Origin: a virus
Strand: one strand, 5' to 3'
DNA: 64,000 nt
Virus record (IMG/VR): IMGVR_UViG_3300045988_181536
Coordinates: 64,001 to 128,000 of that record
Shown here: piece after piece, positions 1,821 through 62,677 of the stretch
How the letters are laid out: each line of letters begins with the position of its first letter
How positions within the stretch are numbered: the first letter of the stretch is position 1
Translations under genes and position numbers: made by a program
Notes under the pieces: model-generated
Seen by the model: only the letters and a program-made list of their open reading frames with translations
The model's database searches: none
Told to the model about the DNA's origin: nothing

Positions 1821-2184
1821 TCCTGGTGGCGAAACAGGTATACGCAGCAGACTTGACAATAATACAAAGGGTCGCCTACGAGAAATCGCTAGGTAAGCAT
1901 TCCGCGAATTGCTGGAACAGCCTTAGAGTCTCACAAACTACAACGTGGTTGGAAACGACGAGCGTGAAGGTTATAAAATTGTGGGAATTGGCCAATCAGC
2001 AGCCAAGGTCCGTTTAGGACAAGGTTCAGAGACTATGTACGGAACATCTAAACGATTTTATAAATCGCATGATGAAGATATAGTCCAATCAGAACATATT
2101 ATTATGGTTTGAGAAATCAAACAATCTGATGTAAAATCTGCTATCCGAAGGGATATGAGGGTTCGAGTCCCTCCCAGGACACCA
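1821..2184 (+). tRNA. tRNA-Leu (anticodon TAA) interrupted by a ~277-nt group I intron in the anticodon loop; 3' CCA encoded
   Basis: 5' exon 1821-~1854 gtcctgg-tg-gcg..cgc-a-gcaga-ct; 3' exon ~2132-2184 taaaa-tctgc, long variable arm tatccgaagggatat, T-arm gaggg-ttcgagt-ccctc, acceptor ccaggac-a-cca. The 7-bp acceptor stem gtcctgg/ccaggac only forms across the 365-nt span. Spliced loop is cttaaaa. Confidence 0.85.
1855..2131 (+). ncRNA. group I self-splicing intron (anticodon-loop insertion, trnL-UAA type)
   Basis: Canonical elements present: P-like gaattgctggaac (~1905), Q-like aatcagcagc (~1993), R gttcagagacta (2024-2035), S aagatatagtcc (2074-2085). Ends in G before the 3' exon; 5' exon ends in T. 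Confidence 0.8.
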
Positions 2185-6775: not shown

Positions 6776-8160
6776 TGTCAACTACTCACCAGATGAACTA
6801 GTGAGCTTGATTTATATGTTTAAATCAATTTTAGACACTTCATTGCTTATGCTTGTTAAATCCTTAGTAGGCTTATCAAGTCTTATTTCAGCTCCATGTC
6901 TGTAATCATCCGTTGCAGATGATAGGATTGTTAATCCTCTTGTTAAAATATTTTTAGCAGCATTAACATCTCTGTCTAAAACTGTTCCGCATTGGGGACA
7001 TACCCAAAATCTATCTTTTAAAGTTAGGCTTTGATTAATATATCCGCAATTATGACAAGTTTTTGACGAAGGGTAAAAATGGTCTATTTTAATTATCTTC
7101 TTACCTTTCCATGCTGCTTTATATTCTAATTTTTGTATCATGCTATTCCAAGAGACATCTGCAATAGCATAAGCCAATTTATGATTTTGCATCATATTTT
7201 TAACAGCTAATGTCTCTAAACAAATTACATCATATTTGTTTAACAACAAGGTACTTAGTTTATGTTGCATATCTTCACGAGAATTGGTTATCTTTTCATG
7301 AAGTTTTGCTATTTTAATTCTAAGTTTTTCTTTTCTATTAGAACCTTTTTGTTTTTTGGAAAAGTGTTTTTGAAGCTTGGATAGTTTTGATTGATATTTC
7401 TTTTGAAATTTTAAGTTGGGATATCGTTTACCATCAGATGTTATAGCAAAATCTTTAATTCCCAAATCTATGCCCACTGCTTTTGTTAAATCTGCAGCAT
7501 CAGGAATACATACGTTTTGTTCTGTTAAAATAGAAACATAATATTTGCCTGACGGTTTTTTAGAAATTGTCGCACTACAAATTTTACCTTTTAAAGGTCT
7601 ATGATTAACAAACTTTATACCGTTCTTAAATTTGGGAATATATATTTTATCATTTTTAATAGCTACATTCTGTGGAACATTAAAAGAATTGTTTCCGTCT
7701 TTACGTTTAAACTTGGGAAATTTAGACTTTTTACTAAAGAATTTTCCAAAAGCCGTTTCTAAATTTTTTAATGATTGTTGAAGGCTTTGGGAATTAACAT
7801 CTTTTAACCACACATATTCCTTTTGCTTTTTAAGTGTAGTTAGAGCTTGTGAGCAATTATTGTAATTTAAAGTCTTTTTATTTTTAAGGTAAAATTCCTG
7901 TTTCTCTTTAAGAAAGTAATTATATACAAATCGGCAATGCCCAAAATGCAATGATAATAGTTCTTTGTCTTCAGGTGAGGGGTAAAGCCTATATTTATAG
8001 GATTTGTATATTGTTTTATTCATTATTTAAGTTAAACTAAAAACTACTTAGAATCAAATAGCAACAAAAAAAAATAAGAATCTATAATAACTTAAACAAA
8101 ACCCCACCATTCATCTTACCAGACAAGCTGGTAAGTTTTCTGGTGGAAATTAATAAAATT
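6776..8160 (-). mobile_element. IS200/IS605-family (IS1341-like) element carrying only tnpB; no tnpA
   Basis: RE hairpin ctcaccagatgaactagtgag overlapping the tnpB 3' end (6796-6817); LE-like nested palindrome ccaccattcatcttaccagacaagctggtaag..ctggtgg at 8104-8150. Confidence 0.6.
6812..8023 (-). CDS. tnpB: TnpB (IS200/IS605 family OrfB, RNA-guided RuvC-like nuclease)
   Basis: N-terminal YRLYPS..ELL..FG.CRFVYN; RuvC-I GIDLGIKDFA, RuvC-II ..CLETL, Zn finger CHNCG..CPQCG, RuvC-III DRDVNAAKNI. Confidence 0.85.
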   Translation of the reverse strand: MNKTIYKSYKYRLYPSPEDKELLSLHFGHCRFVYNYFLKEKQEFYLKNKKTLNYNNCSQALTTLKKQKEYVWLKDVNSQSLQQSLKNLETAFGKFFSKKSKFPKFKRKDGNNSFNVPQNVAIKNDKIYIPKFKNGIKFVNHRPLKGKICSATISKKPSGKYYVSILTEQNVCIPDAADLTKAVGIDLGIKDFAITSDGKRYPNLKFQKKYQSKLSKLQKHFSKKQKGSNRKEKLRIKIAKLHEKITNSREDMQHKLSTLLLNKYDVICLETLAVKNMMQNHKLAYAIADVSWNSMIQKLEYKAAWKGKKIIKIDHFYPSSKTCHNCGYINQSLTLKDRFWVCPQCGTVLDRDVNAAKNILTRGLTILSSATDDYRHGAEIRLDKPTKDLTSISNEVSKIDLNI

Positions 8161-25053: not shown

Positions 25054-27246
25054 ATGCGAACTTTATTTCTTTTGAGAGGAGCCCCAGGAAGCGGCAAATC
25101 CACTTGGGTGAACCGCAATAACTTGGAACCTTATACTTTATGCGCTGATCAAATTCGCACGCTTATTCAATGTCCCGTGCTAAATCTCAACGGAACATTT
25201 TCCATATCGCAGAAAAATGACAAAGAAGTGTGGGAGTATTTGTTTCATTTATTGGAAACTCGAATGGCTCGTGGCGAAATGTTAATAATTGACGCCACGC
25301 ATTATAAGAAAGAATTGCTTAATAAGTATAAAAAACTTGTTAAAAATTATCGTTATAGAGTTTACGTGGTTGATTTTGTTTCAGGCATATCCATGGAAGA
25401 ATGCATGCGTAGAAATCAAAATCGCACGGGTTACAAGATTGTGCCTGACCATGTAATCCAAAAAATGTATTCGGTGTTTAATTCCGAATCTAAGCAAATT
25501 AGAAATGCTTTTACGACTATTTCTCCGGAAGATGCTGTTAAGCTTATCCAAAATACAAATGACCAAGTAAAAGATTTTAATTCTTGGGAAAAAATTTATA
25601 TTTTTGGGGACATCCATGGCTGTTTTGAACCAATAAAAAGTTTTTTTGAAAAATATCCTTATGATGAAAAAGCCTTTTATATCTTTTTAGGCGACTACTT
25701 AGATAGGGGTTTGCAAAATAAGGAAGTATTGGAATGGGCTATAGAATTTGCCGAACATCCAAATTGTTTATTTTTGGAAGGAAACCATGAGAGATGGTTA
25801 AAGCTTTACGCCTCTAAAGATTCCGAGGATCAAAACTTAATAGCTTCTCGTGTGTTCTTAAAAAATACCATACCTCAAATTAAGGATATTGATCCCGTTA
25901 AAATTCGATCTTTTTGCTACAAACTTGCGCAAATGGCACTATTTTCTTATGGTAAACATACGACATGGTTTTGTTGTCATGGAGGGATGCCTGTATTGCC
26001 AAGTCTGCCAATTGCGGCCATAGAAATGATTCATGGTACGGGCAAATATGAAGACATAGATGAAGTGCATAAAGAATTTGAGCGTAGATACGGCAACTTA
26101 AATATCTATCAAGTTCATGGGCATAGAAATGTATACAAAGATGTCTTTAACGCTGACAAAAGTGTTTTTAATTTAAATTCTGCAGTCGAATACGGAGAAG
26201 ATTTGCGTATTTTAAAACTTGCGTTGCAAGAGGACGGATCGGTTACCAAAGAGCTTATAGAAGAACCAAATCCAGTGCATCTCACAGAATCAAACAAGGT
26301 GCGCAGGTTGTATGATAATGAAATAAACAACGACATTATTAAACAACTCTGTGATAATCCGAGTATTATTAAAATTCAATTGGATGACGGAATTATATCT
26401 TATAAATATGATTCAAAATTGTTTTTCTCAAAACAATGGACAGATCTAAATGTTATCGCCAGGGGATTTTTCTGTCGTAAAGATAAAATCATTTGTCGCA
26501 GTTATAATAAATTCTTTAATTATCAGGAACGGATAGAAACATCCCCAAAAGAACTTTGCAAAACATTGCAATTTCCTGTGAGCAAATTTCAGAAAGAAAA
26601 CGGATTCTTGGGATTGGTAAGTTGGGATGCCGAAATGGATAAGGCGTTTATTGCATCTAAATCAACCAATCAAGGCGAATACGCTCAAATGGTTCGTGAT
26701 CGATTTTATGCTTATGACTCATGGAATGAAATGTTAAATTACGCCAAAGAACATAACGTTACATTAATTTTTGAAGTCATAGAGCCGGAAAAAGATCCGC
26801 ATATTATCGAGTATGCACAACCGCATTTAGTGCTGCTGGATATTGTCGAAAACACAATGGAAGGAAAATTGCTTGAATATGATAAACTTAAAGAACTTGC
26901 CAATTCTTGGAACATCCCTTGTAAAATCTTGGAGCATGTTTACAATAACTGGGAAGAGCTTTGGGAAGATCTAAAGCAATTAGAGCATGAAAAAGATTTA
27001 AAGATCGAAGGCTTTGTTTTTCGAGACATCAATAATTATCAGTTTAAGTTTAAAACAAACTATTATAAACGTTGGAAATCGTTTCGCAGCTTAAAAGACA
27101 AATATGCGCGTTCAAAAGATCAAATGAGACAAGTATTTGTTGATAAAGAAGAAACGGATTTTTTCCTTTGGTTGAATACCCAACCTAAAGAATATGTCAG
27201 CAAAACTGATATTATTACTTTGAGACAAAAATTCTTATCTAATTAG
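25054..27246 (+). CDS. polynucleotide kinase / phosphatase / RNA ligase fusion (bacterial Pnkp-type RNA repair enzyme)
   Basis: N-terminal P-loop LRGAPGSGKSTW (T4 Pnk-like kinase); central metallophosphoesterase motifs IFGDIHG, LGDYLDRG, EGNHE, HGG; C-terminal nucleotidyltransferase with KENGF motif I and downstream ligase-like region. Confidence 0.7.
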   Translation: MRTLFLLRGAPGSGKSTWVNRNNLEPYTLCADQIRTLIQCPVLNLNGTFSISQKNDKEVWEYLFHLLETRMARGEMLIIDATHYKKELLNKYKKLVKNYRYRVYVVDFVSGISMEECMRRNQNRTGYKIVPDHVIQKMYSVFNSESKQIRNAFTTISPEDAVKLIQNTNDQVKDFNSWEKIYIFGDIHGCFEPIKSFFEKYPYDEKAFYIFLGDYLDRGLQNKEVLEWAIEFAEHPNCLFLEGNHERWLKLYASKDSEDQNLIASRVFLKNTIPQIKDIDPVKIRSFCYKLAQMALFSYGKHTTWFCCHGGMPVLPSLPIAAIEMIHGTGKYEDIDEVHKEFERRYGNLNIYQVHGHRNVYKDVFNADKSVFNLNSAVEYGEDLRILKLALQEDGSVTKELIEEPNPVHLTESNKVRRLYDNEINNDIIKQLCDNPSIIKIQLDDGIISYKYDSKLFFSKQWTDLNVIARGFFCRKDKIICRSYNKFFNYQERIETSPKELCKTLQFPVSKFQKENGFLGLVSWDAEMDKAFIASKSTNQGEYAQMVRDRFYAYDSWNEMLNYAKEHNVTLIFEVIEPEKDPHIIEYAQPHLVLLDIVENTMEGKLLEYDKLKELANSWNIPCKILEHVYNNWEELWEDLKQLEHEKDLKIEGFVFRDINNYQFKFKTNYYKRWKSFRSLKDKYARSKDQMRQVFVDKEETDFFLWLNTQPKEYVSKTDIITLRQKFLSN

Positions 27247-50268: not shown

Positions 50269-52584
50269 TCAGAATACAAAGGCTTTCCTTATTTCATCCA
50301 TCAAGTTATTATGGTTTTCCCTAATGGTATTTGCGCATACCTGAAGATAAGCGGGATACCACTTAATGTTGGATGTGCCCTTTGATACAACATTTTTCAT
50401 CCAAGAAGTAAAGTATCCTATAAAAGATACGTGGTCAATTGCATTCTTGAAATCCTTAAAGCAATCGGCATATAAGCTGCCTTTTCCGGTGCCGAAGGTT
50501 TTATGTACAGCCAAAGCTACAGCTTCAAAGATTTGTTGAATATAGGGCGTTTTGTCACAATGACCTTCAGCCATTTCAGTAAACAATATTTGCAGAATAT
50601 TTGACAAATGGTCATAAATCGCAGCTTTATCTTTGCAACGGAAACCTAAGAAACGGGTATTTATAGGTCCTTGATAAAGCGGATGACCTTGATAATCCGG
50701 CAGATCATTCTCTACAGGCATATTGTTAATATACTCCACAACCTTTGGAGGCAGCTGATCTAAATTTCGCAGAAGACGCAGTGACTGCATGCTGTGAATT
50801 AAGCGCTTGGGGAACAACGCCCTGCTTTCATGACCGAATAAGTCGCAAATCCTAAGTTTCTCTTCCATAGGAATGCTGTTATATTTTTCATGTCTGCAAA
50901 GATAAGAGCACATGCTCCTATGCCACCAGTTAGGCATAACATCCGCCTTTACATTCGGATTTTTATTTAACTGATCCGCGTGTAAAATCTTTTGATAATC
51001 ATTTATAAATTCATCCAACAAAGACTTAGGTTCAGGAATAGATCCAGGGAACAAAGCGTCCTCTGCCATAATAACTTCAAGCGTAGGACGGAAACGCTGT
51101 ACTTTGCCTATGCTGCGAACATTTTTCCGAAGTTCTTTAAGTTCTTCAATGGCCTCATTTAAATCTATTTCATATTCGCTTTTATTTATTCCAGTCCAAG
51201 CATTTCCTGGCTGAATAGGAAATACCTTTTCAGGTTCTTGATTTAACCTTGCGGCCTTTTCTGCAATTGCCTTCTGCCTTTGTTCGAAAATGGTTATGCT
51301 GTAATCTATTGCTTCCTGAATGTCTTTAATATGGTTGCTGCGACGTTCCAGAGATTTAAAAAACCTAAACGGAGCCAAATAAACCGCATGCAAAGATTCG
51401 CTTAAAAATCTATAACTCATCACTGAAGAGAATTGTTTTTCAGGACGAATATATTTTCCAAGATAACGCTTGCTTATGGACTTAAGATCCTTTTGAAATC
51501 TTTCCCATTTGCGGCATTTATCCGCTTGAATTGTATCCTCTAAAGATTCTGTGCCCTGGGGCTTGGCTGGAGGAGACCATTTGAGGGCTTTTCTGTCCAC
51601 CTCCATATAGTCTATTATGGTTTTATTGGAATCATTTCCTGTATGTGCGCTGCAAGCAACTCTAAGTTCATTCAACATCTTCCAATAGCTTTTTTTGCAG
51701 AATCTGCCACCCATAGAATTGATAAGATTCTTAAGATAAAGAATATTGGGAAGATGATGCTGTATATCACCTTCTCGCTTACGTTCTAAATCAAGATAAA
51801 GCGAATGATAAAACTTGGTTCCGTGAAGCTTATTGGATATGAACTTGAAATTCATCATTACCGCCATATTCGGATTTGACGGGCAATAATCCAAAGACAT
51901 GTCTAAGAGATGAAGCGCATGTGTATCTGCCAAGGAGCAATGATTGTAATTGGCATATTGTATGCGCTTTAATTGAGGATTATAACCTGCAAAAAACTTA
52001 ACAGACTTAAGCCCCCTTTCTGGAACATTGCAACGACGATCAGATAAAGTCCAGCCGTAACCGTTGGTGGCTTTAGGGTTTTTTTCAGCCCATTCCTTCT
52101 CAAGCTGTGCTCTTTTCTGAGCACGTTCCTTTGCCTGTTGCTCCTTTTTTAAGGCTGCTTCTTTTTCCAGCTTTTCCTTTTTTAAAGCCTCTTCCTTGGC
52201 CTTTCTTCTCTCTGCAAGCATCTGTTGATAGATTGCTCTGCCTTTTGCAATAGCTTGTCTTCTACGCTCTCTGTCTTCTTCGGAGATATTTAAAGGCTTA
52301 GTGACTTTGTAACCCTTGGGGCGTCGAAAACGATATTTGTCCAACTTGGCTTTAGCTAATTCTAAAACTTTTTCTGAAACCGTATATTTCCTCTTGCCAG
52401 TTTTCGTGGCTCTATCTGCAGCCACTAAATTCATGCAACATTGTACTAAAGTTTTTTGATTTGCTTTAAGCTTATCTTGATCCAAACGTCCAGTTCCACC
52501 CCCGCGAGCTCTGTGCACCTTCTCGTTCAGGATGCTCTTAGACATATCGCAGTATTCTTCTGTATTACCAATAGTTGTTGCCAT
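50269..52584 (-). CDS. large hypothetical protein (771 aa) with central Lys/Glu-rich coiled-coil segment
   Basis: Only long minus-strand gene in this part; KEEALKKEKLEKEAALKKEQQAKERAQKRAQLEKEWAEK. Confidence 0.6.
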   Translation of the reverse strand: MATTIGNTEEYCDMSKSILNEKVHRARGGGTGRLDQDKLKANQKTLVQCCMNLVAADRATKTGKRKYTVSEKVLELAKAKLDKYRFRRPKGYKVTKPLNISEEDRERRRQAIAKGRAIYQQMLAERRKAKEEALKKEKLEKEAALKKEQQAKERAQKRAQLEKEWAEKNPKATNGYGWTLSDRRCNVPERGLKSVKFFAGYNPQLKRIQYANYNHCSLADTHALHLLDMSLDYCPSNPNMAVMMNFKFISNKLHGTKFYHSLYLDLERKREGDIQHHLPNILYLKNLINSMGGRFCKKSYWKMLNELRVACSAHTGNDSNKTIIDYMEVDRKALKWSPPAKPQGTESLEDTIQADKCRKWERFQKDLKSISKRYLGKYIRPEKQFSSVMSYRFLSESLHAVYLAPFRFFKSLERRSNHIKDIQEAIDYSITIFEQRQKAIAEKAARLNQEPEKVFPIQPGNAWTGINKSEYEIDLNEAIEELKELRKNVRSIGKVQRFRPTLEVIMAEDALFPGSIPEPKSLLDEFINDYQKILHADQLNKNPNVKADVMPNWWHRSMCSYLCRHEKYNSIPMEEKLRICDLFGHESRALFPKRLIHSMQSLRLLRNLDQLPPKVVEYINNMPVENDLPDYQGHPLYQGPINTRFLGFRCKDKAAIYDHLSNILQILFTEMAEGHCDKTPYIQQIFEAVALAVHKTFGTGKGSLYADCFKDFKNAIDHVSFIGYFTSWMKNVVSKGTSNIKWYPAYLQVCANTIRENHNNLMDEIRKAFVF

Positions 52585-55217: not shown

Positions 55218-58200
55218 ATGGAAGAACAAGTAAAAACAAAAACCACGGATAATCCGGATCCGTTTACGAATGAGTTTTCCCGACAGATTTGGGAAGTAAC
55301 CTATAAAACGCAAAATGAAAAGAGTATTACAGATACGTGGAAACGTGTGGCAAATGCTGTAGCCAATGTAGAAAAGGATGAAGAATCCAAAAGATTTTAT
55401 GCTGAGGCTTTTTATGAGATTTTAAAAGATTTTAAGTTTATACCCGGAGGTCGTATATTGGCCAATGCAGGGGGTAGTTGTAAGAATGTCTCTCTCGTCA
55501 ACTGTTATCTCTCACCTGCTCCCAAATACGACATGGATTCCGTTGAAGGAATTATGGAGGTATTAAAGAACCAGGTTTTAACTTTAAAATCTGAAGGAGG
55601 CTGGGGTTTAAATTGTAGTTTTATTCGTCCCAGAGGTTCTTATATAGAAGGCATAGGTGCCAGAACCCCCGGTGCTGTAAAGTATTTGGAGCTGTTTGAT
55701 AAAAGTTCCGAAATTATTACGGAAGGTCCAGGAGAGTATTACATAGAGAATAAAGAAAAAACGCCTAAGAATGAAAAGAAGAAAATTCGCAAGGGTGCAA
55801 TGATGCTTTGTTTAAGCTGCTGGCATCCTGATATATACGAATTTATTACTGCCAAACAAAAGCCGTTTCATCTAACTAAAATGAATATGTCCGTAAATGT
55901 TACCAATGCTTTTATGGATATTTTAAATAGAGTTAACGAGCTTGTTAAAAACAATGCTTCGCAGGAAGAAATCGATGCTGTTGATTTTTGGCAATTGAGA
56001 TTTCCTGATACGGCTTTTGAAAAGTATAAATCCGAATGGGATGGAGACTTGGATAAATGGGAGAAAAAAGGTTATCCTGTAAAAGTTTATCGTACAGTAA
56101 GGGCTACTGATCTATGGGAAGCCTTAATGCAGTCTACCAGCAATCGTTCGGAGCCTGGAGTTTTATTTCTCGATAGGGCAAATGAGACACATTGCGCAAA
56201 TTATATCCCTGAGTTGCAATTAGTTGGGACAAATCCTTGTCTTACTGGAGATACCAAAGTTGCTGTTGCTGACGGGCGTACAAATGTGACTATTAAAGAG
56301 TTGGCCGAAGCTGGCAGAGATGTTCCGGTGTTAGCTTGTGATAATGCTGGCAATATTGTTACAAAGTTAATGCGTAATCCTCGTATTACAGGCTATAATA
56401 AAGATATTTATCGAGTGACTTTAGATGATGGTAATCATATTGATTGCACGTCTAATCATAAGTTTAGATTGTCTGATGGAACATATAAAGAGGTAAAAGA
56501 TTTATCAACAGGTGTAGCTTTGCACACAAATACGTTAAGTGTAGAAGAGTATAAACGTTATTTAGTGCAGGAAGTTTTAAATACGGAAATTACCCCTAAT
56601 CTTCAGCTTGATTCCGTACAACAACTGTGTGAAGAAGCAAAGTCTCAGGGTTATGAGGTAAAAATAGATAATAACATAGTTTTGGTTAAGAGGGTTTGTG
56701 AGGAATGTGGAAAAGAACATTTTGTTCCATTTACTCATCGCGAAATTGCGTTTTGTTCTCTGGAATGTTTAAATACCCATTTGAATAAAGAAAAAATCGC
56801 TGCCAAAACCACAAATACTGATTTAGATGTAATATCTGCTGAGGATTGGCCTGTAAGGTTTGTTTCGTCTATTGAATATATAGGCAAACAAGATGTCTAT
56901 ACCGGTACAGTTGATGATGTGCATAATTATTGCGTTGGGATGTTTGAAACTGTGAATGAACATGGACATCCAAAATTTTATATACTTAATAATCAGCAGT
57001 GCGGAGAGCAGGTTTTATACAGCGGAGGATGCTGCAACTTAGGATCCATCAATCTTACGGCATTTATAGAGTACGATGAAACTAAACATGCCGCCGTTTT
57101 TAACTTTCAGAAGTTCTCTGATATTGTTCCTTATTGCGTAAGATTCTTGGATAATGTCATAGACATTGCCAATCTGCCTTTGGAAGAATATAAATATATG
57201 GCTGAAAGTTATCGAAGAATCGGGCTTGGTATTACAGGCATAGGCTCTGCTTTAATGATGTTGGGTCTAAAATACGATTCTAAGGAAGCTAAAGACTTTT
57301 TAACTAAAGTTTTTGATGTTTATAATTTCTTAGGGATAAGGGCAAGTATCGCTTTAGCTAAATGTAAAGGTGCGTTTAAAGGATGCAATCCTGCAAAACA
57401 TGCTGATAATATAAAATATACGTTTAGACATTTACCGAAGTATATATTGGATGCTTTGCAAAAAGAATTGTTAGAAACTAACGGCATCCGCAATTCAGCC
57501 TTGTTCTCAGTCCAACCGACAGGCAATACAGGGTGTCTAGCCAATAATATTTCAGGCGGTGTGGAACCTGTGTTTCAGTTAGAATACTACAGAATTGTTG
57601 GAGTGCCGATTGTTCCTGAAAGCATAAAAGATAAATGTCCTAGGTTCTGGGAGGGGGATTTTACTCCGAACAATTATTTCAAAGAAGTTAAATACGCAGA
57701 TTTTACTTACTTGTCTTACGTAACTGAAGCTGGCCAAGAATATCAGATACATAAAGATAGAGGTCTGTGTGAAAAAGTAAAAATTCGAGATTATGCTTAC
57801 CAATGGATCTTGGATCATAATTTAGAATATCCACAGGAAGTTTTTACAACAGCTATGCAACTACCTGTTGAATCTCATTTGGAAATTCTGAAATTAGTAT
57901 CTGCACATTTGGATTCCGCTGTAAGTAAAACGATAAATGTTGGCAAGGATTACCCTTATGAACAGTTTAAGAATGTTTATTTAGATGCATATAATAGCGG
58001 AGTAATAAAAGGAGTTACGACTTATCGTGAGGGTTCTATGAGTGCAGTATTGCAAACTACGGATTCGAAAGATGACGTAAATCCTACATCTACATCGATT
58101 ATTCATCCTACTATTACTGCTGAGAAACGTCCTGATATATTGCCGTGTAGAGTATTTTTTAGAACGGTAAAAGGAATATCTTATTACTTTATTGTAAGTT

Positions 58201-58664
58201 TCTTGGAAAATAGTCCGTTTGAGATGTTTATTGACATAAATGAAGATAACATTTTTGACGAGGATGGAGAATGGGTTGAGCGCCGTCGCATTATACCCAA
58301 GACTGTAAAGGAAGGAACTTTAAAGAAGTTGGGTAAGGCTACGTTCGAGTTTGTATCTAAAGATGAGAAATTTATATTTAAAATTGTAAAAGCCAATGAG
58401 TCTTCAGATAAAGCCACATTAACAGCCCTTGCTCGTTTGGTGGCTTTGAATTTGCAGTCCGGTGTATCAGTGAAAGAGATAATACATCAGCTATCTAAAA
58501 CCGAAGGGGATTTTACTTCAATTGTGAAAGCAATTAACAAAGTATTGTCTCAGTGTGCTGGTAAAGTTGATCTTGGAGAAACATGCCCTGTTTGCGGAGG
58601 TAAAGTGTTACGTGAAGAGGGATGTAAAAAATGCTATGCATGTGGATGGTCTGCATGCGGCTAA
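55218..58664 (+). CDS. ribonucleotide reductase, class II-like (NrdJ-like), intein-containing
   Basis: RNR motifs NCYLSP, LKSEGGWGLNCSFIRPRGSYI, RKGAMMLCLSCWHPDIYEFI, active-site TNP|CGEQ interrupted by intein, CNLGSINL, C-terminal Cys-rich tail CPVCGG..CKKCYACGWSACG. Confidence 0.75.
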   Translation: MEEQVKTKTTDNPDPFTNEFSRQIWEVTYKTQNEKSITDTWKRVANAVANVEKDEESKRFYAEAFYEILKDFKFIPGGRILANAGGSCKNVSLVNCYLSPAPKYDMDSVEGIMEVLKNQVLTLKSEGGWGLNCSFIRPRGSYIEGIGARTPGAVKYLELFDKSSEIITEGPGEYYIENKEKTPKNEKKKIRKGAMMLCLSCWHPDIYEFITAKQKPFHLTKMNMSVNVTNAFMDILNRVNELVKNNASQEEIDAVDFWQLRFPDTAFEKYKSEWDGDLDKWEKKGYPVKVYRTVRATDLWEALMQSTSNRSEPGVLFLDRANETHCANYIPELQLVGTNPCLTGDTKVAVADGRTNVTIKELAEAGRDVPVLACDNAGNIVTKLMRNPRITGYNKDIYRVTLDDGNHIDCTSNHKFRLSDGTYKEVKDLSTGVALHTNTLSVEEYKRYLVQEVLNTEITPNLQLDSVQQLCEEAKSQGYEVKIDNNIVLVKRVCEECGKEHFVPFTHREIAFCSLECLNTHLNKEKIAAKTTNTDLDVISAEDWPVRFVSSIEYIGKQDVYTGTVDDVHNYCVGMFETVNEHGHPKFYILNNQQCGEQVLYSGGCCNLGSINLTAFIEYDETKHAAVFNFQKFSDIVPYCVRFLDNVIDIANLPLEEYKYMAESYRRIGLGITGIGSALMMLGLKYDSKEAKDFLTKVFDVYNFLGIRASIALAKCKGAFKGCNPAKHADNIKYTFRHLPKYILDALQKELLETNGIRNSALFSVQPTGNTGCLANNISGGVEPVFQLEYYRIVGVPIVPESIKDKCPRFWEGDFTPNNYFKEVKYADFTYLSYVTEAGQEYQIHKDRGLCEKVKIRDYAYQWILDHNLEYPQEVFTTAMQLPVESHLEILKLVSAHLDSAVSKTINVGKDYPYEQFKNVYLDAYNSGVIKGVTTYREGSMSAVLQTTDSKDDVNPTSTSIIHPTITAEKRPDILPCRVFFRTVKGISYYFIVSFLENSPFEMFIDINEDNIFDEDGEWVERRRIIPKTVKEGTLKKLGKATFEFVSKDEKFIFKIVKANESSDKATLTALARLVALNLQSGVSVKEIIHQLSKTEGDFTSIVKAINKVLSQCAGKVDLGETCPVCGGKVLREEGCKKCYACGWSACG
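56238..56999 (+). other. intein (254 aa) inserted before the catalytic Cys of RNR
   Basis: Block A CLTGDTKVAV, block B DCTSNHKF, internal Cys4 segment CEECG..CSLEC, block F VYTGTVDDVHNYCVG, ends ..ILNNQQ followed by CGEQ. Confidence 0.7.
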
Positions 58665-58717: not shown

Positions 58718-61700
58718 ATGAGAGAAAGCGAAATTAATTTACCCCCCGTGAATATGGATTTGCCATGTCCTAAATTGGCAGATTTTTGCGGAGATTTATC
58801 GTATAAACGTTGTAAGGATGACTTAACTCCCGAAAACGATAATGTAGTATTTTTAAATGGTGTAGGCAGGTTAAATGCGGATATAATGTTTTTAACTGCG
58901 GCGCCATTAAAAGAGGATGTGGATGCGAGATATTCTACACCTATGCATTTAAAATCGGGTGCCGGTGAAATGTTTCGCGCAATATGTTTGCAAAATGGCA
59001 TTGATATTGATGACTGTTATTTTACGTCATTAATAAAGTACGGAATAAAACAAAAGAATTTAAAAGGTTGTAAAAAGGATATAGATTATTGTTTGCCTTT
59101 GCTTCTGGAAGAATTTCAGTATTGTCACCCAAAAATTATAGTTTGCGTCGGTACGGAAGCGTGTGACTTTATTTTAAATTATAAAATAAGCGTATCAAAA
59201 TTGGAAGAGGCGTGGTTTTTTAGTCAAGAACACAACGCTCATGTGTTTGTAATTAGCAGTATTTATAATGCCTATTATAAGCCTGAATTGTACGATAAAT
59301 TAGATAAAGAGATAGGCATGTTGGCTGACTTTTATGATCATTTTCTACAAGGCAAGCCAATCGAGCAGATAAAGTGTGACTATCAATGTATTTCAACTTA
59401 TTCACAGTTATCCAATTTGTTAAATCAGCTTAAGTCTGAAGGTTATAAATTATTTGGAGTTGACTGCGAGTGGGGTAAACAATGTTTTGTAGACGGATAT
59501 CTTAGATCAATACAATTTGCATGGGCTCCAGGCAAGGCAGCTTATATAAACTTTAATAATGAACAAGCCGAATGGGTCTTTGATGCATCAAAAGAATCGG
59601 TATGTAAATTATTGCAAGATTTTTTTAATGACCCTGAAGTGCATTTTGTAGGGCATAACGGAGCGGCTGATGCTCAATGGATGTCAACACATTTGGGACT
59701 AAATGTGTATGACGGCAAGTTTATTTTTGACACCATGTTTGGTATTCAGACAGCTGATGAATATGCTGATCAAAAGTTGGAAAAATTAGCTGCCAAATAC
59801 ACAGATAAAGGCAGATATGATATTGATCTGATCTTATGGAAGAAAAATAATAAAGGCGTATCCTTTGATGAAGATGAAGGATATGGACAAGTTCCTTTGG
59901 AAATTCTTTACCCATATGGTTGTTCGGATGCCGATGTAACTTTAAGATTGTATCCGATTATTAAAGACATGTTAATTAAAGACGGCACTTATGATTATTT
60001 CATGAATATTAAGTTGCCGTTTGTTATTGATGGATTTACCTCCATGTCTATTGCGGGTGTGCCTTTTTGCACTGAGGATGCCAATAAAGCGCGAATAGCT
60101 TATCTGGCCGCAGGCGTAGTCATGCAAAAGTTGTTTATGCAAATGCTTAAAAAAGAGGCATATGATTTGTTTTATACGGAAGTGTCAAAAATTCCGCAGG
60201 AAACGCCTGTAGCGAATATTGCAGAAATTCAAAAGTTTTTTGATGATGAAAGATCTTTTGAAGATATTTTTAATCTGTTAAAAAAACTTTATGGGCGCAA
60301 AGCATTGCCTTTATTGCCGTTTGCTGAACATTATTACTATGTGGATGCCTTTAATCCCAATTCTGCAGAGCATAAAAAGAAATGGTTGTTTGACGTAAAG
60401 AAATACACGCCTATTAAAACAACTAAGCCGGAAGAGGGTAATGCAATACCCTGGGAAAGAGTATTAAAAATGTCCCCCGCTAAGCAGAAAAATTATAAGC
60501 CTGCTGTGGATAAAGATACTCTTAAAATATTTGCGGATAAAGGAGATGATTTATGTCTGCATTTATTGCAAATGAATGCAATTAATCAGATAACCAAGAA
60601 TTTTCTAAAAGGTGAAGAAGGCGGGCTGCAAAAGTTTTTAACTTCAGATGGAAGGCTGCATTCCAACTTCGTTATGACCGAAAGCTCACGGCCACGATCG
60701 TTTAAGCCTAACATCTTAAACATACCAAGATATGTTACAGATTACATAGACAAGGGTTTCACGAAAGTATTAAAGTATTTTAATATTACAGATAAATCTG
60801 ATTTGTCGGAGTTTAATGAAGATAATTTTAATGAAATCGTAAATTCTTTACGTGAAACTTACGGCATTACCGAAAATATAACGATAAAAGATATGGTGCC
60901 TGCACCGTTGCGCTGGTGCTTTAAAGCGCCTGAAGGGTATTGTTTTGTCGATGCAGACTATGCCACAGCTGAAGTATGGTCGATTGCATATTTGGCAAAT
61001 GATAAAAAGTTAATTTCCACTTTGAATGATCCGGATCCGCAATTTGCATTTAAAAAGATGCCTGATGGTTCGGAAAAACAAGTGCGTATAGCATATTGTG
61101 ATGACATTGTTGAATTTACTGAAGATGCAAAAGATCCTGCACTACTTGTAGATCCTAATGATCCGGATTTGGTGAGAAATAATGACGGGTCTCTAAAGCA
61201 TCCGAAACAAGATGTTCACTGGGTTGCAGTGGAAAATAAATTTATGCTTAACACACCCCGAGAAAAGTTAAACAAGAAGAAGACGAGAGATGCTGCGGGA
61301 AAGGTAGCTAATTTTTGTTCTGGCAAAGAAAATTACGTTTATACTTTAGAGGGTTATAAAAAAGCAAAGTTAATAAAACAAGGAGATATTTTAAAATCAA
61401 TATCCGGTTTTACAAAAACTTTATCTGTTACTGCTTTAAATGAGAGAGACTGCATTAAGATCAGATTAAGTTCCGGATTAGTGGCTACTTATCATAAATA
61501 TCATAAGCTTAGATGCTTTAATGGTACGGAAATGGTCTGGGTAAGAGTTAAAGATATCGATCCAAAAAGGCATAAAGTAGTTACCTTCAATCCGAGTTTT
61601 ACTGAAGTTATAGGCACTTTTAATGTTCCAAAAGATTCTTATACGGATTTTTATACAGAATTGAAATGTCGTGAAGGTGATAATACCTATCGCTTGCCTG

Positions 61701-62677
61701 AGTGGATATTCTCTTTAAGTCGTGCTGAGATTTGGAGTATATTGCAACGCTTTTTAGAATTAAACCCCCGAGTCACCGATGCGGTGTGTTATCATTTTCC
61801 GTTAAAATTTTGGAAAAATAATTTAGAATTTATTTCCGATATTGCTTTATTGTTGAATTTTATAGGTTTTCAAACCAAGCTTTCGTTGGAACAAGGCGAG
61901 GATGTTTTAGTGGCTTCGGCTGCTATCGAACCTAATGGGCCTTTGCAAAATATTTATTTTAGTGAAGTTGTTTCTTTGGAACATGTGAAAGAAGATATTG
62001 TGGCAATTGAATGTGAATCCCATGAATATATAGACACTTCAATGAATAGCCATAATTCGATTCCTTATGGTGCAAGTCCTTCTTTGCTGGAACGTAACAT
62101 TGAAATAGCTTCAGGTGAAAAACCTGAACCTGGTACGGGACAAAAACTTATTGACGCCTATATGAACACCAAACCGCAAGTTGCAGAATTTTTGGAATGG
62201 TGTAAGTCTCTGCCTGACGGACAAGGGTATTACCAATCGCCTTCGGGATTTAAAAGACATTTTAAAATACCGCCTTTGGATGCTCAAATGTCGGATGATC
62301 TTAGAGAAAGTATCATAAGTAAACTTCGTCGAGAAGCTTGCAATATAGGATTGCAATCTTTGGTTGCTGACTCTTTAGCAAGGGCCATACCTCCACTAAA
62401 TGCCAGTTTTAGAAAGATGAATATGAAGAGCAGAGTAGTAATTCCTTTGTATGACGCTATTTATATTTTATCTCCTTACAACGAAGTCGATTTGGCTGTA
62501 AGTATGTTGAAGTTTTTTATGTCTGAGAATAATTATTGGGACCTAAAAGGCGGTCGCTTGCGTTACAGTATTGATGTCGAAGTTACAAAACGGTGGGGTA
62601 CAGAACTTTCTGAAGAAGAACACAAAGAACTAACTGAAGGATTAAAAAACGCTTGCCAGACGTTCAAGCTTGCGTAG
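58718..62677 (+). CDS. family A DNA polymerase with N-terminal UDG-like domain and 3'-5' exonuclease, intein-containing
   Basis: Exo I FGVDCEW, Exo II FVGHNGAADAQWM, Exo III YPYGCSDAD; Pol motif A FVDADYATAEVWSIAYLA; motif B R..AGKVANF|intein|SIPYGAS; motif C VIPLYDAIYIL; N-terminal ~150 aa weakly resembles family-4 UDG. Confidence 0.75.
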   Translation: MRESEINLPPVNMDLPCPKLADFCGDLSYKRCKDDLTPENDNVVFLNGVGRLNADIMFLTAAPLKEDVDARYSTPMHLKSGAGEMFRAICLQNGIDIDDCYFTSLIKYGIKQKNLKGCKKDIDYCLPLLLEEFQYCHPKIIVCVGTEACDFILNYKISVSKLEEAWFFSQEHNAHVFVISSIYNAYYKPELYDKLDKEIGMLADFYDHFLQGKPIEQIKCDYQCISTYSQLSNLLNQLKSEGYKLFGVDCEWGKQCFVDGYLRSIQFAWAPGKAAYINFNNEQAEWVFDASKESVCKLLQDFFNDPEVHFVGHNGAADAQWMSTHLGLNVYDGKFIFDTMFGIQTADEYADQKLEKLAAKYTDKGRYDIDLILWKKNNKGVSFDEDEGYGQVPLEILYPYGCSDADVTLRLYPIIKDMLIKDGTYDYFMNIKLPFVIDGFTSMSIAGVPFCTEDANKARIAYLAAGVVMQKLFMQMLKKEAYDLFYTEVSKIPQETPVANIAEIQKFFDDERSFEDIFNLLKKLYGRKALPLLPFAEHYYYVDAFNPNSAEHKKKWLFDVKKYTPIKTTKPEEGNAIPWERVLKMSPAKQKNYKPAVDKDTLKIFADKGDDLCLHLLQMNAINQITKNFLKGEEGGLQKFLTSDGRLHSNFVMTESSRPRSFKPNILNIPRYVTDYIDKGFTKVLKYFNITDKSDLSEFNEDNFNEIVNSLRETYGITENITIKDMVPAPLRWCFKAPEGYCFVDADYATAEVWSIAYLANDKKLISTLNDPDPQFAFKKMPDGSEKQVRIAYCDDIVEFTEDAKDPALLVDPNDPDLVRNNDGSLKHPKQDVHWVAVENKFMLNTPREKLNKKKTRDAAGKVANFCSGKENYVYTLEGYKKAKLIKQGDILKSISGFTKTLSVTALNERDCIKIRLSSGLVATYHKYHKLRCFNGTEMVWVRVKDIDPKRHKVVTFNPSFTEVIGTFNVPKDSYTDFYTELKCREGDNTYRLPEWIFSLSRAEIWSILQRFLELNPRVTDAVCYHFPLKFWKNNLEFISDIALLLNFIGFQTKLSLEQGEDVLVASAAIEPNGPLQNIYFSEVVSLEHVKEDIVAIECESHEYIDTSMNSHNSIPYGASPSLLERNIEIASGEKPEPGTGQKLIDAYMNTKPQVAEFLEWCKSLPDGQGYYQSPSGFKRHFKIPPLDAQMSDDLRESIISKLRREACNIGLQSLVADSLARAIPPLNASFRKMNMKSRVVIPLYDAIYILSPYNEVDLAVSMLKFFMSENNYWDLKGGRLRYSIDVEVTKRWGTELSEEEHKELTEGLKNACQTFKLA
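61316..62056 (+). other. intein (247 aa) inserted in DNA polymerase motif B
   Basis: Starts C at NF|CSGKENYVY, ends ..SMNSHN followed by SIPYGAS; the extein junction restores ANF-SIPYG, matching the PolA motif B consensus; internal region may be a degenerate homing endonuclease. Confidence 0.65.

Follow-up and report, generated by a model that had tools for sequence, protein, structure and literature searches.

A probable class 1 intein with a decayed LAGLIDADG homing endonuclease in motif B of a family A DNA polymerase from a metagenomic phage

Class 1 inteins of the LAGLIDADG type, such as PI-SceI (VMA) and TliVMA (PDB 7qsu), are characterized by Cys1, a block B His, a terminal His-Asn and a +1 nucleophile, and by a Hint fold with the endonuclease located between the two Hint lobes. 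A stretch of viral DNA of 64,000 nucleotides (nt), comprising positions 64,001 to 128,000 of the IMG/VR record IMGVR_UViG_3300045988_181536 and referred to below as the window, was analysed for a 247-residue insert in motif B of the family A DNA polymerase (PolA) that it encodes. The insert is considered, at a probability of about 88%, to be a class 1 intein with a decayed nested LAGLIDADG homing endonuclease. All of the above residues and the same arrangement of lobes and endonuclease region are found in it, and both LAGLIDADG motifs are kept among its allelic relatives. In contrast to the described LAGLIDADG inteins, it retains approximately one half-domain without the catalytic acidic residue, bears His in block B and Ala in block F in place of the usual Thr and Asp, respectively, and is missed by PF14890, PF14528 and the NCBIfam models.

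DNA polymerase I has been named among the intein-bearing bacterial replication and repair proteins (Novikova et al. 2016, PMC4760082). The host family is thus the same, whereas the host here is a phage fusion of a UDG-like domain, a 3'-5' exonuclease and PolA (UDG-exo-PolA); the main text of that paper gives no insertion point for DNA polymerase I. Inteins of metagenomic polymerases (P0072, P0076, P0078, P0082 and P0094) occupy the same bond and belong to the same family (E 1e-139 to 1e-20), and the block F Asp is absent from PolA motif B inteins as from the window copy (21 of 21); most of them, however, keep a full LAGLIDADG domain (~380-430 residues), and their host polymerases have no UDG domain. 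The terminase inteins of actinobacteriophages (Gordonia phages Ali17 and Verity, Mycobacterium phage Omega) are homologous to a full-length relative of the window intein, that of P0082 (tblastn E 3e-11 to 1e-6), and are phage-borne and LAGLIDADG-type as here, but differ in host protein and insertion site. The mini-inteins gp41-1 (PDB 6qaz/6riz) and MchDnaB-1 (6rix) superpose on the predicted Hint lobes with a root-mean-square deviation of 2.6-2.7 A over ~80-88 columns; the sequence similarity of their N-lobes is weak and not significant and, unlike the window copy, they have no endonuclease remnant.

The polymerase gene and the parts of it relevant to the insertion are as follows.
58718..62677, plus strand: polymerase precursor gene, a single long open reading frame (ORF) of 1319 residues plus stop, from the ORF list
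58718..61315, plus strand: N-extein, residues 1-866, ending in the first half of motif B
60941-60991, plus strand: motif A, CFVDADYATAEV, in the N-extein
61283-61315, plus strand: first half of motif B, TRDAAGKVANF, at the end of the N-extein
61316..62056, plus strand: predicted intein, 247 residues, precursor residues 867-1113, delimited by in-frame translation, insert-free alleles, Foldseek and profile relatives
62057..62677, plus strand: C-extein, residues 1114-1319, beginning with SIPYGAS, the second half of motif B
62057-62059, plus strand: Ser+1 (TCG), first codon of the C-extein
62435-62467, plus strand: motif C region, VVIPLYDAIYI, in the C-extein

The order of domains in the precursor was determined with Pfam as a family 4 uracil-DNA-glycosylase-like domain (UDG, residues 48-179), a 3'-5' exonuclease (DNA_pol_A_exo1, residues 222-419, E 7.5e-17) and a family A polymerase (DNA_pol_A, E 6.6e-22), the last of which was matched in three separate stretches. 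The insert runs in frame from a TGT codon (Cys) to the codons CAT AAT (CSGKENYVY...SMNSHN) between the flanks ...TRDAAGKVANF and SIPYGAS..., and its excision restores K-V-A-N-F|S-I-P-Y-G. With the insert kept, the Klenow fragment was aligned by phmmer to motif A and the region downstream of the insert only (E 2.8e-8). After deletion of the insert, the polymerase aligned to Klenow through motifs A, B and C as a member of family A, in one unbroken stretch (E 1.7e-11) that pairs 'ktrdaagkvanfsipygaspsllern' with 'qrrsa--kainfgliygmsafglarq' of Klenow. The restored alignment therefore places the split inside motif B, directly after the equivalent of Phe762 in E. coli Pol I numbering; Ser+1 stands where Pol I has Gly763, within the O-helix, to which the incoming nucleotide binds.

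Among 5.8 billion proteins searched, 41 UDG-exo-PolA homologues were obtained and aligned with MAFFT. The site is uninterrupted, as GKxxNF-(S/G/Q)xPYG, in 28 of them, and an insert is present at the identical peptide bond in the other 13; insertion at one shared bond, as judged from these alignments, is far beyond chance. The boundaries at 61316 and 62056, the length and terminal residues of the insert, the split of motif B and the C...HN-S splice residues had all been proposed in a sequence-only reading of this DNA, and each agrees exactly with the alignments, which also supplied the intein-free alleles recommended there as a check. The G+C content of the insert is 33.2%, slightly under the 36.7% of the exteins. 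Scanning of the other frames and the opposite strand inside the insert detected no ORF and no hidden endonuclease, and no free-standing endonuclease gene adjoins the polymerase gene. A group I intron as the interruption was rejected, since the reading frame is continuous and no intron was found by Rfam at the insert.

The same data bear on the explanation that the insert is a non-splicing inserted domain, or that the polymerase is disabled. Lineage-specific insertions are tolerated elsewhere by family A polymerases, which counts for this explanation, as does the failure of all the curated intein models to detect the insert. The insert, however, interrupts the O-helix between two residues of the catalytic site, its splice-site residues are invariant across alleles that are 29-41% identical, and a Hint fold is predicted for it. 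Moreover, the exteins are under very strong purifying selection (ratio of nonsynonymous to synonymous divergence, dN/dS, of 0.01-0.04) and the polymerase ORF is unbroken in every relative compared. A non-splicing domain or a dead polymerase is accordingly regarded as highly improbable.

The anatomy of the splicing domain was read from the alleles and relatives and is given below.
61316..61585, plus strand: Hint N-lobe, intein residues 1-90, with invariant C1 and H63
61316-61318, plus strand: Cys1, N-terminal nucleophile, block A
61475-61510, plus strand: block B, GLVATYHKYHKL, in the Hint N-lobe
61502-61504, plus strand: His63, the conserved block B His, which is H in 21 of 21 PolA motif B inteins
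61952..62056, plus strand: Hint C-lobe, intein residues 213-247
61994-62035, plus strand: block F, DIVAIECESHEYID, in the Hint C-lobe
62036-62056, plus strand: block G, TSMNSHN, with the terminal His-Asn at 62051-62056

Six allelic inserts, 29-41% identical to one another, were found to have Cys1, His63, the block F His and the terminal Ser-His-Asn in invariant form, and Cys1 is invariant in all alleles and in 34 of 34 relatives. An AlphaFold2 model built on the six-allele alignment gave a predicted local distance difference test (pLDDT) score of ~77-87 in the N-terminal Hint lobe, and the top 50 PDB matches of this model in Foldseek were almost all inteins, hedgehog Hint or BIL domains. The best of them were the TliVMA intein (E 1.1e-4, template modelling score 0.57 on the query), MchDnaB-1 (E 2.6e-4) and gp41-1 (E 9e-4). 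The insert is thus predicted to adopt a Hint fold.

A profile of the six allelic inserts was used for an exhaustive HMMER search, in which 797 cluster representatives were obtained at E<=1e-3 and 72 at E<=1e-10. All nine of the top matches scanned are family A polymerases broken at Pfam DNA_pol_A positions ~212-219. LAGLIDADG_3 was recognized in seven of the nine; of the remaining two, one has a weak PF14890 match below the cut-off and the other, P0090, gave a borderline result (E 7.2e-5; 23.4 bits, the cut-off being 22.5). The window insert is therefore tied to inteins indirectly, because the profile of its alleles matches where the curated models do not.

Several results weigh against the assignment as a splicing class 1 intein. 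No intein or LAGLIDADG model of Pfam (PF14890, PF07591 and PF14528) or NCBIfam (N- and C-terminal intein models) matches the window insert, even at E<=1, so that the test with intein models suggested by the sequence-only reading came out blank for the models themselves, while the intein fold and the relatives found with the allele profile were recovered. A phmmer search of the insert against PDB sequences gave chance-level matches only (MHC class II; gp41-1 at E 0.43), and the six-allele profile searched against the PDB gave gp41-1 at E 0.08 together with a spurious NEMO coiled-coil match. The mean pLDDT of the AlphaFold2 model is 66.8, and residues 237-245, before the splice site, are below 50. 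Finally, the usual block B Thr and block F Asp are missing, and judged by these residues efficient splicing should not be assumed. Two further searches with the insert were blank, namely a word-indexed homologue search with the insert alone, in which nothing was found although the insert is present in P0001 at 98% identity (a shortcoming of the index and no true absence), and tblastn against the deposited phage collection.

In block B, His60 stands in the window where Thr is usual; the PolA group has H, R or T there, and T is found in 9 of 13 relatives that reside in other host proteins. In block F, Ala230 stands in the window at the position of the usual Asp (F:4); the 21 PolA motif B inteins have V, A, I or T there, or a gap (n=2), and never Asp, whereas D is found in 6 of the same 13 relatives. 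The block F Asp is an accessory feature of class 1 inteins and not a defining one, and the PolA motif B group, if splicing, would evidently use non-standard helper residues. The class 3 type was considered for the Cys in block F and rejected, as Cys1 is present, the Cys is not at F:4, and the Trp/Thr partners are lacking.

Selection on the parts of the element was estimated as the ratio of nonsynonymous to synonymous polymorphism (pN/pS) among four 247-residue intein copies (the window, L005, L010 and L012). The ratio was 0.09 in the N-terminal Hint lobe, 0.00 in the C-terminal Hint lobe (with no nonsynonymous difference among the four copies), 0.21 in the endonuclease remnant and 0.05-0.07 in the flanking extein. 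The splicing domain is constrained like the polymerase, and the endonuclease remnant is more relaxed. Because the Hint lobes are under strong purifying selection, and an essential motif is interrupted, splicing is probably still active.

Since the canonical splice residues are present, the standard pathway would be followed. The gene would be translated as a precursor of 1319 residues in which the O-helix of the fingers is broken after the Phe762 equivalent. Cys867 (intein Cys1) would attack the carbonyl of Phe866 in an N-S acyl shift, the acyl group would be handed to the side chain of Ser1114 (+1), Asn1113 would cyclise with the aid of His1112 to release the intein, and an O-N shift would give a normal Phe-Ser peptide bond. 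The predicted products are a polymerase of 1072 residues with K-V-A-N-F-S-I-P-Y-G, the junction peptide of which would read ...GKVANF-SIPYGASPSLLER, and a free intein of 247 residues.

The location of the insert and its Cys residues raise the explanation of a conditional switch, by which the redox state or another condition would gate splicing and, through it, the activity of the polymerase; inteins of this conditional kind have been described elsewhere. With an intein in the catalytic O-helix the precursor must be inactive, none of the six close alleles varies at Cys46 or Cys233, and the replaced block B Thr and block F Asp might slow splicing or make it conditional. Nevertheless, among the wider PolA motif B inteins Cys46 is found in 10 of 21 and Cys233 in 5 of 21 only, many homologous polymerases have no intein at all, and the allelic turnover described below is as expected of a selfish element. 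A regulatory role of this kind is regarded as improbable, albeit somewhat less so than a non-splicing domain.

The region between the Hint lobes was delimited by alignment with the alleles P0015, P0014 and P0008.
61586..61951, plus strand: predicted LAGLIDADG homing endonuclease remnant, intein residues 91-212
61598-61621, plus strand: motif 1 relic, FTEVIGTF, the rest of the first half-domain being deleted
61724-61774, plus strand: degenerate motif 2 helix, AEIWSILQRFLELNPRV, from the allele alignment
61823-61870, plus strand: following helix, LEFISDIALLLNFIGF, retained

The allele P0015 (431 residues) has both LAGLIDADG motifs intact (FAYLMGLYLGDGS and YLLAGLIDSDGS), P0014 (329 residues) and P0008 (325 residues) have degenerate motifs, and the shortest alleles are the 247-residue form of the window and a 237-residue form. 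A two-motif LAGLIDADG monomer is characterized by two helices, each ending in a catalytic Asp/Glu, and by both alpha-beta half-domains; this organization is present in P0015 and lost from the window copy, and Pfam LAGLIDADG_3 matched P0015 only (E 9.6e-6), the window copy being blank. Motif 2 of the window is replaced by ILQRFLELNPRV, in which a Pro is aligned to the catalytic Asp; the model places helices of this region at residues 110-118, 129-149 and 170-182. The decay series from P0015 through P0014 and P0008 to the window, with the motif 1 relic and the Pro, bears out the earlier guess of a degenerate LAGLIDADG endonuclease. With the first half-domain deleted and the acidic catalytic residue of motif 2 replaced, autonomous homing of the window copy is most likely no longer possible.

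The intein would have arrived by endonuclease-driven homing into the highly conserved DNA of motif B, where the empty site would read ...GCTAATTTT|TCGATTCCTTATGG... and, as a duplex, ...GGAAAGGTAGCTAATTTT|TCGATTCCTTATGGTGCA... In the lineage of the window the endonuclease has since decayed as described above, and the intein would persist because a working polymerase requires precise splicing.

Relatives with polymerases at least 60% identical to that of the window all carry an intein at the same bond, in three very different versions. Between the window and L004, the identity of the exteins is 99.6% for the protein and 96.4% for the DNA, and that of the inteins 34% and 48%, respectively. Between the window and L002, blastn gave an identity of 94-95% up to 61342, resuming at 62051, and the gap at 61343-62050 therefore shows that homology breaks at the intein borders. 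The 237-residue intein is 92% identical in DNA between L002 and L006 (synonymous divergence, dS, ~0.19), the exteins of which are 65% identical with saturated synonymous sites, and identity rises and drops again no more than 20 codons from the junctions. Between L002 and L004, dS is 0.007 in the intein and 0.135 in the extein. Such a pattern is characteristic of horizontal movement as a cassette, even where the allele has no complete endonuclease. The 247-residue type was found as close variants only, all in near-identical exteins. A search of IMG/VR and of JGI metagenome contigs for an empty junction (GKVANF-SIPYGA) in a close relative was negative, the closest alleles without an intein being ~50% identical. 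Of the 13 homologues with an insert, P0024 and P0027 carry an unrelated intein type at the same bond.

These comparisons bring in the explanation that the element is still mobile, either through an active residual half LAGLIDADG domain (e.g. as a dimer) or by mobilisation in trans by the endonuclease of a full-length allele or of a co-infecting phage. In its favour are the sharp change of identity at the intein borders between the window and L004, the low intein dS of L002 and L004, the pN/pS of the middle region, which at 0.21 is not neutral, and the 237-residue sister, which is also without a complete endonuclease and yet is so well preserved across the divergent exteins of L002 and L006. 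On the other side, the motif 1 half-domain of the window is gone and its motif 2 has Pro at the catalytic Asp; no nuclease family of Pfam or NCBIfam is matched, and neither a hidden ORF in other frames nor an endonuclease gene next to the polymerase gene is available. The restriction of the 247-residue variants to near-identical exteins likewise gives no direct sign of recent movement. Continued mobility of the window element is therefore considered unlikely, though less so than the two explanations weighed above.

The contexts of the junctions were read from the 150 best profile matches. The bond of the window, NF|S..YG, is represented by 13 representatives, AKx|CNF by 13 and NFG(x)|[C/S/T](x)YG by 6, and these three insertion sites of motif B lie within six residues of one another; the remaining junctions are at the 'TGRL' site of PolA, in proteins resembling GyrA or in further hosts. 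In the more remote homologue P0049, Pfam recognises an intein situated three residues before the bond of the window (AKT|C...HN|CNF). Among the profile matches (P0079-P0102, P0123, P0207 and others), inteins at the different bonds score against the profile of the window's site (site a) like distant inteins of that site. The comparable scores across bonds suggest movement between neighbouring bonds of motif B. Among deposited phages, the relatives detectable by tblastn carry terminase, helicase and RNR annotations, DNA polymerase being found in 0 of 60 rows sampled across the ranking. A broader proposal, that endonuclease-incomplete inteins (the 237-residue form and perhaps the 247-residue form) still move as precise cassettes through a dimeric half-domain or in trans, and that motif B is a hotspot in which they hop between three bonds within six codons, is held to be a doubtful one, on a par with the mobility of the window copy itself.

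Other interruptions were observed in the polymerase genes of relatives. In L009 (5563-6519), the P0024 polymerase has the unrelated intein at NF|S, CIAENQKV...GYLVSN, which ends in Ser-Asn. The middle of this intein is an Arg/Lys-rich low-complexity sequence in the intein frame, whereas 271 codons are open in the +1 frame, where an HNH-like motif, DRIDNDGHYEINNLRLVERTEN, occurs; this frame, for which Pfam gave no significant match, may encode an endonuclease nested out of frame within the intein. In L015 (4975-6139; IMGVR_UViG_3300045988_177658), the polymerase gene, which also carries the 237-residue intein, is split in addition at TESSR|PRSFKPN (window residue 658, nt ~60691) by a group I intron (RF00028, 69.4 bits) with an ORF of 335 residues containing a DUF559/Vsr-like nuclease domain. 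Other PolA proteins have inteins at the 'TGRL' site corresponding to the position of this intron.

Three Hint-type insertions in 64 kb had been counted in the sequence-only reading, with one each in the ribonucleotide reductase (RNR) and the large terminase (TerL) besides the polymerase. The RNR intein is real: it occupies residues 341-594 of the product of 55218-58664 (plus strand) and is inserted at GTNP|C...|CGEQ (PF14890, E 1.2e-10). It apparently ends in ...FYILNNQQ, with Gln-Gln for His-Asn and ~11 extra residues after block F. The RNR of L004 has a 486-residue version of the same intein with an HNH_3 domain, and the RNR intein is therefore also polymorphic between near-identical phages. 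The TerL element proved not to be a simple internal insertion. The TerL ORF (13006-15045, minus strand) matches PHROG 675 from profile position 143 onward only, is apparently truncated and begins with ~130 Hint-like residues, MSKKVESLNPKFTESYAIEDWQIETSNGW...CADTHGII...MYDVTLKNDTSHTYFTNGILSHN|TTNMLL. The ATPase/Walker A piece expected at the N-terminus of TerL was found neither upstream on the minus strand (where plus-strand ORFs lie) nor elsewhere in the window, and the ORF resembles either the C-terminal half of an intein that is split atypically, with a long C-fragment as in the AceL-TerL type, or a broken gene. The other Hint-type elements of the window were not detected by the polymerase-intein profile. 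A complete group I intron (RF00028, 68.7 bits, E 2.4e-15) lies at 1851-2105 (plus strand), 47 nt downstream of tRNA-Gln (1732-1804), and no interrupted protein-coding gene was recognised around it.

With respect to the phage itself, megablast of the polymerase gene against deposited phages gave no match, and the polymerase is at most 23-26% identical to those of deposited phages; as judged from these searches, no deposited genome is closely related to the window phage. Contigs of 100-180 kb that are related to it are present in IMG/VR, ENA and Logan assemblies, and the UDG-exo-PolA fusion of the phage is known from metagenomes only. The window contains four tRNA genes and, at 25054-27246 (plus strand), a fusion of 730 residues that combines a P-loop domain resembling polynucleotide kinase with a metallophosphoesterase and a T4-type RNA ligase 1 domain and is an RNA repair (Pnkp plus Rnl) protein in a single polypeptide. 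A TnpB / IS605 OrfB-type protein with OrfB_IS605, Cas12f1-like TNB and HTH domains is encoded at 6812-8023 (minus strand), and two large ORFs of 1305 and 771 residues, at 43002-46919 (plus strand) and 50269-52584 (minus strand), respectively, have no Pfam or PHROG match.

The element is real but fairly ordinary, namely a divergent addition to a known intein type in an active-site motif, as inteins commonly are. Its most interesting aspects are population-genetic, i.e. the swapping of cassettes, the apparent mobility of endonuclease-poor alleles and the three-site hotspot of motif B. For annotation, the polymerase of the window and many metagenomic ones should be treated as precursors, in which the catalytic O-helix would form only after splicing. 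Since the element is missed by curated intein models, automatic pipelines will report an oversized or 'split' PolA domain. The Phe762-equivalent residue is used as a marker in PolA surveys of virioplankton; with insertion directly after this marker, unrecognised inteins can therefore corrupt such surveys. The intein family, being divergent and having a Ser+1 junction together with accessory residues out of the ordinary, may also hold some modest interest for protein engineering. Within one gene family, the stages of the homing cycle are represented by empty sites, full endonucleases and decayed endonucleases, together with two unrelated cassettes in phages that are otherwise ~95% identical.

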